A stretch of 64,000 nucleotides of DNA from Spirochaetia bacterium (GCA_965225855.1 CBDDCK010000005.1:896001-960000), one strand, 5' to 3'; shown: positions 25,501-46,500, numbered from the stretch's first letter. Numbers: made by a program.

Positions 25501-28500
25501 TCGCTTGGAACTTCACTCGTTTGTTAGCAAGACACCCCTATATTACCCGCACGGTATTCCTCTGCAGTGCTGGCTTGCTGCTGCTGATACCGCAGGTACC
25601 GGTAAATAATGACACTATCAGTTACTTCCACCCCAACTCACGTGTGGTCAAAGATAGCTTGATTATCAATGATAAACTCAGTGGTATCTACACTATCCAT
25701 ATTAGTATGGAAGCTGTTCAAGCAAGTATATCTGATACTTCTCAAAGTTCAATCGAGCAGAAAGTACTAGAGCCAGAGATTCTACAATATATGGCCAACC
25801 TAGCTACTTACGTCAAAGAACAAAACCCAAGTCTAGTCAATAAAACCATTGGCTTGCAAGATTTTGTGTTGCAACTCAACGGTTTGCTAAACCCAGGTCG
25901 CAATAACCAAACGCCACAATCACTGCCAAACCGCCAAACTATCGTGCAATATCTCTCCTTGTATTCGGGAAACTTGGATAGTTTTGTTAGCCCAGACATT
26001 TACGAAGCCCAGAGTGCCAGAGTCTCCATTTACTTAAATGACGGTAGTAAAGACAGCACTCAAAAAGTGCTACGCGATATTGAAGTGTTCCAAGCTCAGC
26101 ACTTGCCAAAAGGTTATAAGCAAATAGAAAGCGGTGCTTCTTTAACGATAAACAACATGAATCAGTTAGTGGTCAAGGAACAAATACGCAGCATCATTTT
26201 GGCAATCACTGGTGTTTTCCTCATTGTTCTGTTTAGTTTCCGCTCGCTACGCTTGGGCTTGCTCGCTTGTTTGCCTTCAACTATCACCTTATTGCTTAAC
26301 CTTGTGCTCATGGCATTGCTGCAAATTGATTTGGACATCAGCACGGCATTGATCAATAGTCTGTTAATTGGCGTGGGGATTGACTACGGTATCCACTTAA
26401 TTAGTGCCTACCGCCAAGGCAAAATTCAGCACGATGGCCCTAGTGCCCTGCAGCAAGCCCTCAAACAAGTCAGCTCTAATATCCTGCTCAATGCAGTAGC
26501 TGTAGGCCTAGGCTATATGACATTAGTCTTTTCTCAATTCCGTAGTTTAGGCTACTTTGGTGGACTTTCGGCACTGGCCAATATGATAGCCGCTGCCTTA
26601 ACCCTGTTGATTCTACCTCTACTTCTATTAAACAAAAAACAAAGGTCTTCACTATGAACACAATTAATAAGCGTATCAAACCCCTATTTTCTATGATAGC
26701 TTTGCTAGCATTCAGTGTTTTACCCGCCATGTCTTTACAAGCATTGCCCACAGATTTACTGGATACTTGGGTCTTACCTCAGCAATCACAATCTTGGTTC
26801 AACGGGCAATACCGTTATCGAGTGTTGGCTTTTTGGCAAAAAGGCCCAAGCATTGAATATTTAGAATTACGTATTTACCCCAGCGATGGCGTGCGCAGCG
26901 TCTTGATTACCGGCAAAGTTCGGGGGCAAGGGCAGGCTACTTTGGTATTGCAACAACAGCAAGAAATCCGCATTGTCAATGAAGGCAGAGGTTTCCCTAC
27001 ATATTTTAGCCACCATGTCAAACCGCTTGCAAGCCAAAAGGTGCACAAATATCGCCTAGAGAGTGGTAAAACTTTAGAGCTCAATGGCCAAGAAACCTTT
27101 AACCATTACGGCGCAAGTTGGGCCAAAGCTCGCCGAAATCATGATGCTTTTGCTGCGATGGACTTAACTGTAATCCATTTCTACCTAATACAATCTCAAG
27201 TACCCAACTTCGGTAGCATGAAGATGATGAAAAATTCTAATACTGAATATACAGGTTTACTCTCTGGACAAATGATCCTGGACTTTGAGGCCCGCGGCTT
27301 GTTAGGCTTTGGCAATTCTGGCCTATGGTTTCGATTGATAGACTTTCAACAATTGCCTCACACCCTGATAAACGGCAAATGTTTTGGTGGCTTTAAGTCT
27401 ATGGAAGGGTTTATGCAGTTTTTTGTCTATGGAGAACCCGTATTGAAAGTAGACTATAGTCAAGTAATTATGGCCAACGGCTATGCAGCTGATGGTTCCT
27501 TTCTGGTAAACTTTCCCGGCAAAAGTCAAGTTGCTATACCAGTCGGTCGCTACGGCCAATAAGTCCAATATCATCGACTATCTAGTTAGCAAAAGTCGAT
27601 TCAGTTTTATCATATCAGTTCAGTAGCGTTGCAATTTCAGCAAGGCTACTTTATCATTCCAGCAAAACTAGATAGAAAACTTAGTGGTTCTGTTTGTCTA
27701 TTTCACCTAATCTGATGAGTGCCTTCCCCAAATAGGAAGGCACTCATCAAAAACTTGTAACTCCAGAAAAGCTGGCTGCCGTATGCCATTGCCTACGGCT
27801 TAACATAGCTAAATCACCGTGATAGCGATTACTTGACGGTTAAGATGTTTGCCAAAATACCCGTGCGGATTTCATTGTTTTGGGTATATGCAGCCCGCAA
27901 CTCCAAATGGTAATTGCCTTTATTCAGCGTAGAAGGGATCAAAAAGTTCACTTTGCTATTGGTACTATCTAACACATCAATAACGCGGGTCTCGGTGTCA
28001 TCATTGGCTATGAAGAATATCCCTTCGCTACTCTCGTTGGCATCAAACTGTAGTCTCGTGCCAGTCAGCCGCGCCATATTTGCAGGAGTAATCGTCTTAT
28101 TAGTGGTGTTGCTCTTGCTATCAAACAATTCTATAGGCTGTGGTGCTACTAATTCGGCTGCAACCTTTTCGATCACAGCTTCTTGAATCGACATTTCTAA
28201 AGTCGAACTAGCACTAATGCTGACGTGTTTGCGGTGCTTTCCACTGGTGAAACTATCTGTAGGAGAACTAAACTTGCCCTTAATGCCGGGGCGATAGTTG
28301 CCGTGCCGCGTGTTGACATAACAGCCTTCTCGCAGGTATTGTTCCAAAGTCGTAATGTATAACTGCATGCAAGCCAGTATATCTCCTTTGGTTAAACTGG
28401 TGCCAGCTTGGGTCATACGTTCGTAAATATCGTCTTCCCCAATGTTTTGTACCGGGTGCACCATAGCCTTATAAACTTTACTCTTTGTTATTAAGTTGTT

Positions 28501-43500: not shown

Positions 43501-46500
43501 TCGAGTGCTTTATCTGGTTGCCCTTGTTCTTCGTATAGGTTTCCACGATTGCCATAGGCATCTGCATCATCTGGCTGTAACTCAATCGCTTTGTTGTAAT
43601 CTTTTAGTGCCTTATCCAGTTGCCCTTGCTTTTTATATAGATTGCCTCGGTTGTTGTAAGCTGTAACACTGCCCAGCTCAATCGCTTGGTTGTAGTCTAA
43701 CAGAGCCTTATCTTCTTGCCCTTGTTCTGCGTATAGTACTCCACGATTGCCATAGGCATCTGCATCATCTGGCTGTAATTCAATGGCTTGGTCGTAATCT
43801 TTTAGAGCCTCATGCCATTGTTTTTGCTTTTGATATAGATTGCCTCGGTTGTTGTAAACGTCAACATCGCCCAACTCAATCGCTTGGTTGTAGTCTTCCA
43901 GTGCCTTATCTGGTTGCCCTTGTTCTGCGTATAATACCCCACGATTGCCATAGGCTGCTGCAAAGTCTGGCTGTAATTCAATGGCTTTATCGTAGTCTTT
44001 TAGTGCTTGATCCAGTAGCCCTTGTTCTGCATATAATAGGCCTCGGTTATAGTAGGCTGTAACATTGCCCAGCTCAATCGCTTGGTTGTAGTCTAACAGA
44101 GCCTTATCTTGTTGCCCTTGTTCTGCGTATAATACCCCACGATTGCCATAGGCATCTGCAAAGTCTGGCTGTAATTCAATCGCTTGGTCGTAATCTTTTA
44201 GAGCCTCATGCCATTGTTTTTGTTTTTGATATAATCGGCCTCGGTTATAGTAGGCTGCAACACCGCCCAACTCAATCGCTTGGTTGTAGTCTAAAAGTCC
44301 CTTATCTTCTTGCCCTTGTTCTGCGTATAATACCCCACGACTCACATAGGCATCTACAAAGTCTGGCTTTAATTCAATTGCTTTGTTGTAATCTTCCAGG
44401 ACTTTATCCGTTTGCCCTTGCTTTTGATATAGATTGCCTCGGTTATAGTAGGCTTCAATATAGCCCAACTCAATTGCTTGGTTGTGGTCTAATAGAGCCT
44501 GATCCCATTGCCCTTTTTTTACGTATAGCACTCCACGATTCGTATAGGCTTCTGCAAAGTCTCGGTTTAACTCAATCGCTTTGTTGTAATCTTCCAGGGC
44601 TTTATCCGTTTGCCCTTGCTTTTGATATAGATTGCCTCGGTTATAGTAAGCTTCAACATTGCCCAACTCAATCGCTTGGTTGTAGTCTAACAGAGCCTGA
44701 TCTTCTTGCCCTTGTTCTGCGTATAGGTTTCCACGATTCGCATAGGCTTCTGTAAAGTTTGGCCTTAATTCAATCGCTTTATGGTAATCTTCCAGAGCTT
44801 TATCTGGTTGCCCTTGCTTTTCATATAATACACCTCGGTTGTTGTAAGCTGCAACATTGCCCAACTCAATCGCTTGGTTGAAGTCTAAAAGTGCCTTATC
44901 TGTTTGCCCTTGTTCTGCGTATAATACCCCACGATTGCCATAGGCATCTGCATAGTCTGGCTGTAATTCAATCGCTTGGTCGTAATCTTTTAGTGCTTGA
45001 TCCGATAGCCCTTGTTTTTGATATAGATTGCCTCGGTTGTAATAAGTTATAGCATTGGTTGGCTCTATCGCAATGGCTTTGTTGTAATCAACCATGGCTT
45101 CGGCCCATTTTCCTATTTCTCTATATAAGATTGCTCGGTTGTTATAGGCTTTAATACATTTATTGTCTAGCTCAATAGCTAGGGCATAGGCCTCAATGGC
45201 CGCCTTTATATTTCTTACTTCTTGGTGGTTTTCCCCCTGTTCAAAGTAGGCTTTTGCTTCTGGGTTTATCATGATGTGTCTCCTGTTGTTATGATAGATA
45301 AACCGTTTATCAACGGTTTACGGACTAATTTTAACCGATTGGGATTCTAAAGGGTATAGACCCTTTAGCGGGGTTTGGGGCAGAGCCCCAGATATTATAA
45401 TAAAGAGTTGTTTTGTCAATCATTGATAGATAAACCGTTTATCAACGGTTTACGGACTAACTCTAACCGATTGGGATTCTAAAGGGTCGAGACCCTTTAG
45501 CGGGGTTTGGGGCAGAGCCCCAGATATTATAATAAAGAGTTGTTTTGTCAATCATTGATAGATAAACCGTTTATCAACGGTTTACGGACTAACTCTAACC
45601 GATTGGGATTCTAAAGGGTCGAGACCCTTTAGCGGGGTTTGGGGCAGAGCCCCAGATATTATAATAAATAGTTAGCTTGTCCATCATTGATAGTTTTATC
45701 ATTTATTTATGGTTTTTAGTTTTTCAATAGTGCATAGTTTCTTTTATTGTTTAGGAATTTAACCCTTATTATCCATTATTCCCACCCAACCTATCTGCTA
45801 TATCAATTGGGGCTCTGCCCCAAACCCCGCACAAGGGTATATACCCTTGAGGATCCCAATAGTGCATAGTTATTATTTTTCTTGATGATTCTTTGCTTCC
45901 TTTTCCAGCATTTCCAGTAGCTCTACCGTCTGTAGGCTGACCGTGATTACACGACAAACCAAGTCGATAATGGCTTCTTTGTGCTCGGCAAAGCTAAAGG
46001 CAGGGACTAACTCTGCAATGGTCGGGTCTTTAATCTTTAGGGCTTGACGGTAGCGTTCCAGTGGCCAATCTATCGCACTTCGGTTGCCTAGGCGGTAACT
46101 CCAAGCGATAGTCGGAATGTTTGTTAGCGTGGTTTGGTTGTCGATTCGTATCGTTCCATTGGCAGAATCGCTTTTTAGTTTGGGCAACAATACCAATTCT
46201 GGTTCTGCTTGCTGTGGTTCTTCGCTTGGGCTATCACTGAATAAAGGCCCGTCAATCGCTTTTTTCTTTTGGGGCTTTTTACTATTTGCTTCTTCTCTTT
46301 GGCAAGTAAACGGTTCTACTGTGGCAAAGTTTATATGCAATTCTGCCAATTGTTGGCCGATACTCTGGTAATGAGCAAAGTCTTCTTTAGTAGACCCCAA
46401 CAACGGCATTCGTGGAAAGCTGCGCTTCAAATCTACGGCATACTTCTCGCGATAGCTCGATAAATGCAACACAGCATAGCAATAGTGCCAGATACTTTCG

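Follow-up and report, generated by a model that had tools for sequence, protein, structure and literature searches.

The locus considered here recalls several described systems. HEC-02 pairs an ABC ATPase, HEC-02A, with a NERD/PD-(D/E)xK nuclease, HEC-02B, and its description states that the way in which systems of this type sense infection is unknown, inserts being proposed as the specificity region (10.1101/2024.01.29.577857). PD-T4-2 is described as the pairing of DUF262 with a PF18735 HEPN domain (PMC10952713), and fungal NLRs carry highly conserved TPR arrays that vary in repeat number (PMC4986451). In Neisseria, the repeat arrays called NIME are described as able to promote the exchange of genes (PMC1797815).

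The window, a stretch of 64,000 nucleotides from the genome of a Spirochaetia bacterium (GCA_965225855.1), contains 12 genes between 27829 and 48998, all of them on the minus strand. The left edge of this island is formed by a HU-HIG family gene (27829..28527; HU-like DNA-binding domain plus DUF4469), one of nine paralogous loci detectable by tblastn in the genome, and the right edge by a type ISP/IIG restriction-modification enzyme of 1041 aa (45873..48998). Domain matches bear out the gene inventory of the first-pass annotation, namely three fusions of TPRs to an AAA_21/AAA_15 ABC ATPase, two of them with a small partner gene, two pairs of GmrSD_N (DUF262) and RiboL-PSP-HEPN genes, and a TPR membrane protein of 952 aa. 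The latter (42414..45272) has 20 TPRs and a charged helical and hydrophobic C-terminus, for which no match was found in Pfam or Atlas. The description of the region as a defence island is supported by the gene families present (HEC-02A-like, PD-T4-2-like and type ISP), and it is likely to be a cluster of anti-phage, defence-type genes. The type ISP/IIG gene, a HEPN relic and the degeneracy of ATPase 1 were absent from that annotation.

The two DUF262-HEPN pairs resemble PD-T4-2 (PMC10952713). In both, the gene order of that system is found, a DUF262 gene without DUF1524 (gene 1, 34791..35906; gene 2, 37189..38361, ~30% identical to gene 1) being followed by a PF18735 HEPN gene above the cut-off (34302..34787 and 36624..37202, respectively). 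The HEPN genes carry RNQLAH and RNELVH, which fit RxxxxH, taken here to be the HEPN motif. PD-T4-2_A was matched by both DUF262 proteins (E 1e-53 and 5e-44), but these score higher on the NsnA models of Menshen, and PD-T4-2_B was matched by HEPN1 only (E 2e-4). Menshen itself, in which NsnA is followed by the ATPase NsnB and by NsnC, was rejected because HEPN follows both DUF262 genes and the ATPases of the island score far better on HEC-02A than on NsnB.

All three ATPases align with canonical HEC-02A members, and HEC-02A is the top PADLOC family for each (E 7.9e-37, 2.8e-49 and 7.9e-48). Walker A, Walker B and the H-loop are intact in ATPase 2 (31252..32772; 506 aa, ~5 TPRs) and ATPase 3 (40076..42190; 704 aa, 11 TPRs with a DNA period of 198 bp). 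ATPase 1 (28890..30374; 494 aa, ~5 TPRs) is without a partner gene and degenerate, with a GDPG signature, Gln in place of the H-loop His and a C-terminus shortened by 12 aa. Insert 1 is shorter by ~30-35 aa in six of six TPR-fused ATPases, those of ATPases 2 and 3 included, than in five canonical ones. As in HEC-02, a small gene with NERD/DUF6661-like features overlaps the ATPase gene downstream, in this case nuclease-like gene 2 (30720..31259; 179 aa) and gene 3 (39496..40083; 195 aa). The match of the partners to HEC-02B is weak (E 3-4e-4, in accord with the value of about 3e-4 given previously); they fall in DUF6661/NERD clusters of the Atlas (0.91-0.94), and a structural model (pLDDT 71) gave a best Z of 7.2 (rmsd 3.3, 118 aligned), with several restriction-fold chains at Z 5.2-6.5. 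D40, E53 and K37 are kept. In contrast to HEC-02, however, the (D/E/Q)xK lysine is missing from the partners in the window, where the motif reads EVC in gene 2 and EVS in gene 3, the Ser/Cys reported earlier; the same holds for P0002 and P0004, and so for four of four members of the subclade, against ELK, EVK or ECK in six other partners.

In the searches made, no genus but this one showed a fusion of TPRs to the ATPase, in agreement with the restriction to the lineage already claimed. A congener, G002, has two such pairs, one of them keeping the pair of the island at ~43-45% identity, and pattern searches found no hairpin unit there, so the absence of the arrays from the congener locus was rightly noted. 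Its second copy has an intact ELK partner, the only one with a clear match to HEC-02B (E 1e-31), and lies inside a type I RM locus and hence within a different defence system, a setting described for HEC systems (10.1101/2024.01.29.577857). To speak of a new sensor class is therefore to overstate the case, as all three ATPases best match HEC-02A. Compared with HEC-02, the TPR-fused ATPases differ in an N-terminal array of 2 to 20+ TPRs and in the shortened Insert 1, and they are a genus-restricted HEC-02 variant that is new in having gained a shuffled TPR array and lost ~30 residues of Insert 1.

The TPRs themselves are closely related between genes. For seven of seven parsed repeats of ATPase 3 the nearest DNA neighbour is in the TPR-membrane gene, at up to 97% identity, and overall the nearest-neighbour identity is 80-100% over 87 nt, with nearest neighbours crossing genes. 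At positions 2, 5, 6, 9, 12 and 13, which we take as the concave-face set, pN was 0.26 and 0.36 as opposed to 0.07 and 0.13 elsewhere (permutation p ~0.01 each), although pS at those positions (0.21 and 0.43) is about equal to pN and the repeats are not independent. High internal repeat identity, variation in repeat number, exchange between genes, variation on the concave face and fusion to an NTPase are features shared with the fungal NLRs (PMC4986451), from which the island differs in having an ABC ATPase rather than STAND, N-terminal TPRs, an effector on a separate gene and a concave-site pN about equal to pS, which does not show positive selection. In this genome TPRs are found joined to TIR-like, DUF2971/PDC-S31 and membrane domains as well.

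Between these genes lie the hairpin units, double hairpins with periods of 132 and 110 bp, both hairpins of which fold as an extragenic palindrome. A genome-wide pattern search placed 28 of 28 matches in the 2.71-Mb genome at window positions 32868-45830, 16 on the plus and 12 on the minus strand; a 40-nt double-hairpin pattern gave the same 16 and 12, and a control pattern matched once in the genome. The confinement of all copies to one stretch of ~13 kb, in both orientations, was thus correctly observed, but they occupy five intergenic gaps instead of six gene junctions, groups E and F sharing one. Plus units stand directly upstream of three TPR-gene starts, inside a shared leader: array A (32795..34316), with 12 units of 132/110 bp and the leader palindrome GATAAACCGTTTATC at 32797, precedes ATPase 2; the single unit D (42214..42345) is in the leader of ATPase 3; and array E (45292..45693), with three units that each have the leader palindrome and a promoter-like site, is in that of the TPR protein. 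Minus units stand directly downstream of three gene ends, array B (36043..36557; four units) following HEPN2, array C (38507..39443; seven units) nuclease 3 and the single unit F (45771..45872), inverted with respect to E3, the type ISP gene. The HU/ATPase 1 gap, the ATPase 1/nuclease 2 gap and the DNA 5' to the type ISP gene are free of units. Leader and TPR 5' block were duplicated as one piece (32452-33215 and 44952-45715 are 77% identical, 42212-42396 and 45558-45742 92%). Spacer tails are closer within arrays (A/A 0.85, E/E 0.91, B/B 0.80) than between them (A/B 0.57), but the units C2-C6 are mosaics of a B/F-type core and a D/E-type spacer, which, on the sequence evidence, records exchange between arrays of opposite orientation. 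The lack of any Rfam match was confirmed for 32700-39500, where a covariance-model search gave none at E<=1.

It had been proposed that many units carry a sigma70 promoter, and by consensus match, the sole basis of the score, all 16 plus units reach 9-11 out of 12 for a promoter of sigma70 type that points towards a TPR gene, with an exact TTGACA in 15 of the 16 amid neighbouring bases that vary. In array A, where each unit has a minus-strand TTGACA and a -10-like box directed at ATPase 2, the TTGACA-17-TATATT previously noted is exact in 8 of 12 units and the other four score 10/12; unit D has TTGACA-16-TAATAT. ATPase 1, alone among the TPR genes in having no hairpin unit, is instead faced by a 12/12 site, TTGACA-18-TATAAT, held by a relic of the HEPN2 3' end and downstream DNA (30481..30645, minus, the HEPN part being 30484-30645) that is 81% identical to 36556-36718. 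Against a promoter function, TATATC occurs in three units of array A, among them that closest to the gene, and each predicted transcript would begin at the foot of strong hairpins. The B units reach a promoter match of only 7-8/12, no good match was found in the B, C1, C2, C7 and F units, and C3-C6 carry TGGACA-16-TATTAT directed back into nuclease 3. Since the site of every plus unit aims at a TPR gene, the plus arrays read best as promoter tandem repeats, and they resemble those described with copy-number phase variation (PMC12817950) in consisting of tandem promoter-bearing units directly upstream of a gene. They differ from them in having a longer unit with a REP-like double hairpin, at most 12 copies, a position upstream of defence genes and an effect on expression that is predicted. 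The length of array C differs among related strains.

The core of the unit had been called a dispersed REP-like element of many phyla, and it was indeed dispersed in four of four unrelated carrier genomes, at 10-41 copies, with stem 1 covarying across genomes; outside this genome it lies among housekeeping genes. Its likeness to REP, BIME and REPIN elements and to clustered REPs lies in this dispersal, in the covarying stems and in G+C-rich extragenic hairpins that occur singly, in inverted pairs or, together with flanking DNA, in tandem clusters (PMC3733652, PMC6006769 and PMC5581495). Unlike those, the unit has two hairpins, starts with GGGAT, is without the GTAG/CGTC tag or a cognate Y1 transposase, and is confined in this genome to one island (28 of 28). 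A search for the PF01797 Y1 transposase found none in this genome (94% complete), and 0 of 12 Y1 loci in the four carrier genomes hold the element beside them. That the unit is confined to the island here and dispersed in those four genomes counts against the reading preferred below, the lack of a mobiliser being its sole explanation. Genome-wide there are 114 intergenic tandem arrays, 102 of which have a shortest period of 21-23.5 bp or one to three times that length. A family of 22 bp that forms no hairpin stands upstream of seven of seven paralogous Mod genes and is present in a further four defence clusters, which hold 15 of its 25 multi-copy clusters.

An important consideration is whether the units were selected as joints for integrase-free excision, inversion and reordering, as in a NIME-like or integron-like array of defence cassettes, which we regard as unlikely. 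The island shares with the neisserial NIME (dRS3/RS; PMC1797815) mosaic arrays of dynamic length with a conserved G+C-rich repeat and variable A+T-rich spacers, placed beside genes under pressure to vary and proposed as recombination substrates; it differs in an unrelated repeat sequence, a single locus flanking defence genes and units with promoter-like sites. Such a role is favoured by the gene exchange that NIME arrays can promote, by the confinement of the units to five gaps of the island in both orientations and by the mosaic array C. Related strains also differ in array length, type and flanking genes, as seen in a joint skipping 793 bp (38505>39299, side 92) and in a C-type unit that adjoins the end of HEPN2 in runs X4 (side 119) and X5 (side 98). 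Depths in run X1 are 13.7-15.9 for unique contigs lying between arrays A and E against 8.75 and 10.1 outside, a hint only, as depth is not copy number. However, none of the 12 genes is inverted, the congener pairs have no arrays, two junctions lack units, and none of the breakpoints between paralogues (28850, 30388 and 30645) coincides with a unit. The genome also has ~110 other intergenic tandem arrays, some of them at gene junctions in four further defence clusters. Mosaics also arose within genes: the ATPase P0007 of a relative agrees with ATPase 3 at 26 of 26 sites in one block (ATPase 2 at 9 of 26) and with ATPase 2 at 28 of 28 in another, and the nuclease P0002 alternates between nucleases 3 and 2, so that both are, by sequence comparison, intragenic mosaics of the island paralogues. 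Joints that skip 3544, 11915 and 793 bp were reproduced, as were those on opposite strands, but they come from diverged strains and are ambiguous, the records of the runs bearing them being mostly 90-99% alike and 62-71% continuing into unlike DNA. In the 3544-bp joint, a plus unit is connected to sequence on the far side of an inverted unit and only 2 letters are shared, unlike a product of recombination between repeats, and the left piece of this joint has 13 mismatches in 127 to leader D, which itself differs from leaders E1 and A1 by 12 and 13; the 11915-bp joint has a side of 21 letters and 31 foreign letters; and the opposite-strand joint with the longest side (35834/36844) is inside two genes. 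Among the 15 joints listed, half of the total, only one appears in X1, and it lies within the type ISP gene. No serine resolvase was found in the genome and its only tyrosine recombinases are two distant ones (C5:384 kb and C1:135 kb), confirming that no recombinase is adjacent; recA is present. An integron or site-specific shufflon was rejected, there being no linked recombinase, 1-12 units per gap and two empty gaps. That arrays exchanged sequence in the past, those of opposite orientation included, thus stands, but not their role as dedicated joints, and integrase-free cassette shuffling is poorly supported.

Neutrality is a further, and also doubtful, possibility, in which a REP-like passenger was amplified by the general tendency of the genome towards intergenic tandem repeats and affects neither expression nor rearrangement; the ~110 other arrays, the units with no good promoter match and the core among housekeeping genes elsewhere agree with it, but the near-invariant TTGACA and the new perfect site before the unit-less ATPase 1 do not. 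That the arrays or the gene order are artefacts of assembly is very improbable: among the contig pieces listed none spans the whole stretch, but the units differ from one another consistently, the same unit types recur in related strains, and contigs of run X1 agree with unique stretches at 0 mismatches and continue into the edges of the arrays (for example 34246-36102 and 36511-38608). As doubtful as neutrality is the possibility that the TPR-ATPase/partner modules are in decay or repurposed, no longer anti-phage, with the TPRs a lineage-wide graft of no sensing role. The missing lysine, the degenerate ATPase 1, the TPRs on other domains and a pN about equal to pS would fit, but no ABC motif is lost from ATPases 2 and 3, the partners keep D40, E53 and K37, and the congener retains the pair, once with an intact ELK partner.

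On balance it is probable that the defence cluster expanded through duplication, insertion and ordinary recombination of the RecA type, and that its units are locally tandem-amplified copies of a widespread REP-like double hairpin, which likely entered gene leaders and trailers before multiplying. None of these observations requires a new recombination mechanism, and the arrays are likely not a new gene-shuffling machine. Arrays A and E would act as promoter tandem repeats whose copy number alters expression; the arrays would recombine with each other and may occasionally delete or duplicate the intervening genes, with no more special a part in this than is played by the longer homologies among TPRs and between genes. 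As for the proteins, a phage protein or another non-self protein would be bound by the variable concave face of the TPR array, and this would switch the ATPase; the latter would in turn work through its partner, and exchange of repeats between genes would give rise to new specificities. Further observations pull against this explanation. A common 132-bp period in arrays A and B, despite heads only 0.28 identical, hints at a length constraint, units C2-C6 record exchange between arrays of opposite orientation, the 15 of 25 clusters of the 22-bp family suggest that arrays at defence junctions may be selected as recombination sites, and the TPR variation does not show positive selection.

A bolder and rather speculative possibility is that the island is the bacterial equivalent of a variable immune-receptor locus, in which TPR arrays replace the HEC-02 sensing insert and gain new phage specificities as genes exchange repeats, and the hairpin arrays serve as an expression rheostat, set by the number of promoter copies, and as an accordion that amplifies or excises the 12.5-kb A-E block within a living population, providing with the 22-bp arrays a genome-wide, recombinase-free tuning of defence. 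The X1 depth, ~1.5 times higher across that block, would fit the accordion. The double-hairpin core forms a REP-like family that spans phyla and for which neither a mobiliser nor an Rfam model is known. The arrays provide a case in which to test whether toxic defence genes are dialled up or down by the number of promoter copies. The natural series of shortened Insert 1 with 2 to 20+ exchangeable TPRs offers a handle on HEC-02 sensing, and if the TPR is the sensor, TPR swaps should shift phage specificity.

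The island lies between an MMPL-type operon and argG in the 2.71-Mb genome (window C5:896001-960000) and holds 12 genes, all 12 on the minus strand, in the order HU-HIG; TPR-ATPase 1; partner 2 and TPR-ATPase 2; HEPN1 and DUF262-1; HEPN2 and DUF262-2; partner 3 and TPR-ATPase 3; a TPR-membrane protein; and a type ISP restriction-modification enzyme. The double-hairpin unit is, as the first-pass annotation had claimed, confined to this island, where all 28 genome matches are found (16 plus, 12 minus; a control pattern gave one match). The units form groups A (12 units, plus), B (4, minus), C (7, minus), D (1, plus), E (3, plus) and F (1, minus); that both orientations occur was thus correctly noted, whilst the number of gaps occupied is five and not six. 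The core of the unit is about 54 bp long and forms two hairpins, and no Rfam family is matched. Nine HU-HIG-like loci, one at window 27829-28527 and eight others, occur in the 2.7-Mb genome, and their products may be regarded as candidates for binding short tandem arrays.

Beyond the genus, a metagenome scan revealed the core at 12 loci, nine of them in one assembly that looks chlamydia-like by its genes. In that assembly the core has housekeeping genes on either side and is often paired, the two copies facing outwards about 250 bp from each other and enclosing further palindromes. Dispersed copies were present in four unrelated genomes (Chlamydiales, Eubacteriales, Waddliaceae and Verrucomicrobia: 41, 10, 12 and 12; control 0 matches), the first stem of the core covaries among these carriers, and the core was not found in 400 other genomes of the class, three congeners included; the unit thus behaves like a REP/BIME element. 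The double-hairpin core represents a REP-like family that crosses phyla, has covarying stems and forms composite elements of BIME type (metagenome contigs L051, L047 and L055; genomes G656-G659), although the island unit is without the GTAG/CGTC tags of known REP/BIMEs. Tandem reiteration of REPs together with flanking DNA is on record (PMC3733652). Searches of this genome for a mobiliser or recombinase yielded no Y1 transposase, no serine resolvase and, for DUF559, only a weak match within a 1499-aa frame 0.9 Mb off. None of the 12 Y1 loci of the carrier genomes holds the element, and the ORFs beside it in these four genomes (38 of 46 scanned) comprised housekeeping genes, unknowns and three stray defence/addiction genes, with no transposase. 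The full unit gave no match in viral contigs with two patterns, the 22-nt core occurred there at 10 unrelated loci, and plasmids yielded no unit. In two small Rep-encoding circular-type viral contigs (L032 and L034) a GGGGCAGAGCCCC hairpin stands behind a second hairpin in the intergenic region. A search of the open literature for the exact string of the core hairpin found no paper, and no intrinsic terminator was found in the units.

The placement of the units follows their orientation: plus units lie directly upstream of three TPR-gene starts, in a common leader with a palindrome, and minus units directly downstream of three gene ends. The palindrome, GATAAACCGTTTATC, is present in every unit-bearing TPR-gene leader (window 32797, 42215, 45297, 45429 and 45561) and once elsewhere (C5:15612), and appears operator-like; the 5' part of the TPR gene, the leader and the units were copied together as a single segment (77% over 766 bp; 92% over 185 bp). 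On the strand of the gene, each of the 16 plus units carries a site resembling a promoter, scored by consensus matches only (eight at 11/12, seven at 10/12, one at 9/12). Given this placement and these sites, arrays A and E look like promoter tandem repeats, comparable with those of PMC12817950. Against this reading, the sites are consensus matches, transcripts would start within hairpins, and TATATC is what the unit closest to ATPase 2 reads. In C3-C6 a 10/12 site is directed back into partner 3. ATPase 1, alone among the TPR genes, lacks a unit, and it has the region's sole 12/12 promoter site, which sits in a HEPN2 relic; the original HEPN2 stretch has no TTGACA. An invertible promoter was considered on account of the outer flank of C7, where about 20 bp of an A-type -35 tail precede a flipped core, and was rejected for want of recombinase or strain evidence.

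An important consideration is whether the units are dedicated joints for gene shuffling, as the first-pass annotation held in proposing integrase-free excision, inversion and reordering of defence cassettes. We regard this as unlikely, although past exchange of sequence between arrays is supported: in C2-C6 a core of the minus type is joined to a spacer of the plus type (tails 84% like E3), so that opposite orientations recombined at some time. Two further points are in favour of joints, in that array length and type vary among related strains and arrays with unrelated spacers have kept a 132-bp period. However, there is no inverted gene in the island, and breakpoints and mosaics fall inside genes. 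The duplicate of ATPase 1 starts at 30388 and ends at 28850, neither at a unit, and the HEPN relic, whose other end (matching 36556) does coincide with the outer edge of array B, starts inside coding sequence, likewise not at a unit. For most of the domain, the ATPase of a relative (P0007) tracks ATPase 3 (26/26 against 9/26 in one block), after which it tracks ATPase 2 (28/28 against 24/28; 17/20 against 12/20), whilst the partner of P0007 (P0002) resembles partners 3 and 2 by turns; recombination has therefore taken place inside genes. Furthermore, TPR arrays offer longer homologies than hairpin arrays, and the nearest neighbour of a TPR can lie in another gene (up to 97%); recA is present in the genome; and no unit occurs in a congener (G002) that has TPR-ATPase pairs at two loci, one of them within a type I RM locus. 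NIME arrays are the nearest known case of dedicated repeat joints (PMC1797815), and with this precedent dedicated joints, even if real, would be no new category. An integron was also rejected, there being neither a linked recombinase nor one site per cassette. An empty-site comparison was precluded in G001-G003, where the island flanks are not syntenic.

The contig joints that had been cited for shuffling come from a comparison of four of eight runs with the window at 85% likeness, and 15 of the 30 joints, those listed, are considered. In the three runs of study P2 most records are 90-99% alike and 62-71% continue into unlike DNA; these runs are diverged strains, and their joints therefore compare strains, not events within one population. 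The 3544-bp skip is hard to read as an array-to-array deletion: it leads from a plus-unit tail to DNA beyond inverted unit F with two letters in common, D and F are oppositely oriented so that recombination between them would give an inversion, not a deletion, and the piece is of uncertain origin, since it differs from leader D by 13 mismatches, as far as D is from E1 (12) and A1 (13). The 11915-bp joint has a side of 21 letters and 31 foreign letters; of the opposite-strand joints one lies inside two genes, and for the other (side 42) a possible reading is that a unit of type E follows one of type B, an arrangement also seen in array C. The 793-bp skip (side 92) fits a shorter C array. X1, probably the source run, contributed one joint among those listed, inside the type ISP gene; its contig depths (8.75 and 10.1 in the flanks, 13.7-15.9 between A and E, 5.5 from ATPase 1 to partner 2) hint at copy-number mixing, though they are no measure of it.

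Repeats between genes are widespread in this genome. With a crude gene set, 114 intergenic tandem arrays were counted on C1-C5, three being CRISPR-like by period and size, and in 102 the shortest period is 21-23.5 bp or a twofold or threefold multiple of it, in several sequence families (e.g. window 63796-63974). A period of about 22 bp, two helical turns per unit, suggests phased sites at which proteins may bind; the island periods of 110 and 132 bp are five and six times 22, and autocorrelation detected no 22-bp periodicity inside the unit. One non-hairpin 22-bp family (122 motif matches) lies upstream of all seven paralogous type III Mod genes, which are 55-94% identical and alternate with TPR-DUF2971 or TPR-membrane genes; no Res gene was found among the ORFs scanned at the four defence clusters given next. 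Fifteen of the 25 multi-copy clusters of this 22-bp family fall at gene junctions in four other defence clusters (L126, C5:110-132 kb; L127, 768-787 kb; L125, 524-542 kb; L124, 1004-1020 kb), two of which were picked for this repeat and two for TPR/Mod genes. As this family is found there too, repeats at defence-gene junctions are a habit of the genome for which the hairpin is not needed, and this cuts both ways: the hairpin unit loses its special status, and the pattern could be selected. The CRISPR-like arrays are at window 2877-6542 (36-bp repeat, 66-bp period, about 55 units), C5:662-676 kb and C5:1074-1095 kb (about 200 and 300 units). A large multicopy gene family with 80-90% DNA identity, at C1:6.2-8.8 kb and dozens of other loci, often lies behind 46-bp arrays and apparently encodes lipoproteins, to judge by the N-termini.

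All three island ATPases are HEC-02A-like. The six TPR-fused ATPases are without some 30-35 residues after the first helix that all five canonical HEC-02A proteins have; this presumably corresponds to the Insert 1 region, which the HEC paper ties to specificity (10.1101/2024.01.29.577857). The fusion was seen in four of the 12 matches listed by a protein search that scored 8000 candidates, all four from this genome or one relative, and additionally at two G002 loci; canonical unfused pairs occur in six of the seven genomes matched in a 301-genome phylum sample. At the second G002 locus (L028:8031-15082), a type I RM locus has a 1107-aa TPR-ATPase inserted between its hsdS and hsdM genes, together with a partner that is a clear, canonical HEC-02B and reads ELK. 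The source record of a congener protein names Candidatus Haliotispira prima, a spirochaete. Among the phage-defence papers listed by a search of the open literature, none is described as treating this fusion of TPRs and an ABC ATPase. The island partner is NERD/DUF6661-like by language-model features and its predicted structure (pLDDT 71; best Z 7.2, below the level counted as clear) is compatible with a restriction fold; Foldseek gave no match at E<=0.001. Its ExK site reads EVS/EVC in all four subclade members. Profile and whole-library searches found no further homologue outside the genus, and P0005 was dismissed as a repeat artefact. The DUF262-HEPN pairs fit PD-T4-2, and a Menshen assignment was rejected in its favour. 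The C-terminus of the TPR-membrane protein has no Pfam or Atlas match.

TPRs in this genome are likewise joined to TIR-like, DUF2971/PDC-S31 and membrane domains, and a lone 362-aa TPR gene at C5:995300-996388, which stops exactly where the ATPase domain of the island genes starts, is a head without its ATPase. Repeat variation is mainly at positions 2, 5, 9, 12 and 17; at the concave positions, a set we assume from the TPR literature, pN is higher than elsewhere by a factor of 2.7-3.6 (p about 0.01), yet roughly equal to pS. The pattern resembles that of fungal NLR TPR arrays (PMC4986451), and fits a variable binding face without being proof of selection. On balance, the island is probably a defence hotspot that would have been diversified by duplications, by insertions and by homologous recombination among all its repeats, the hairpin unit being a REP-like passenger of leaders and trailers that would have multiplied in tandem. 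In the plus arrays a putative promoter would have been multiplied with the unit, and its activity may have a dosage effect. The TPR-fused HEC-02 variants may then serve in defence, and would sense through an exchangeable TPR array.
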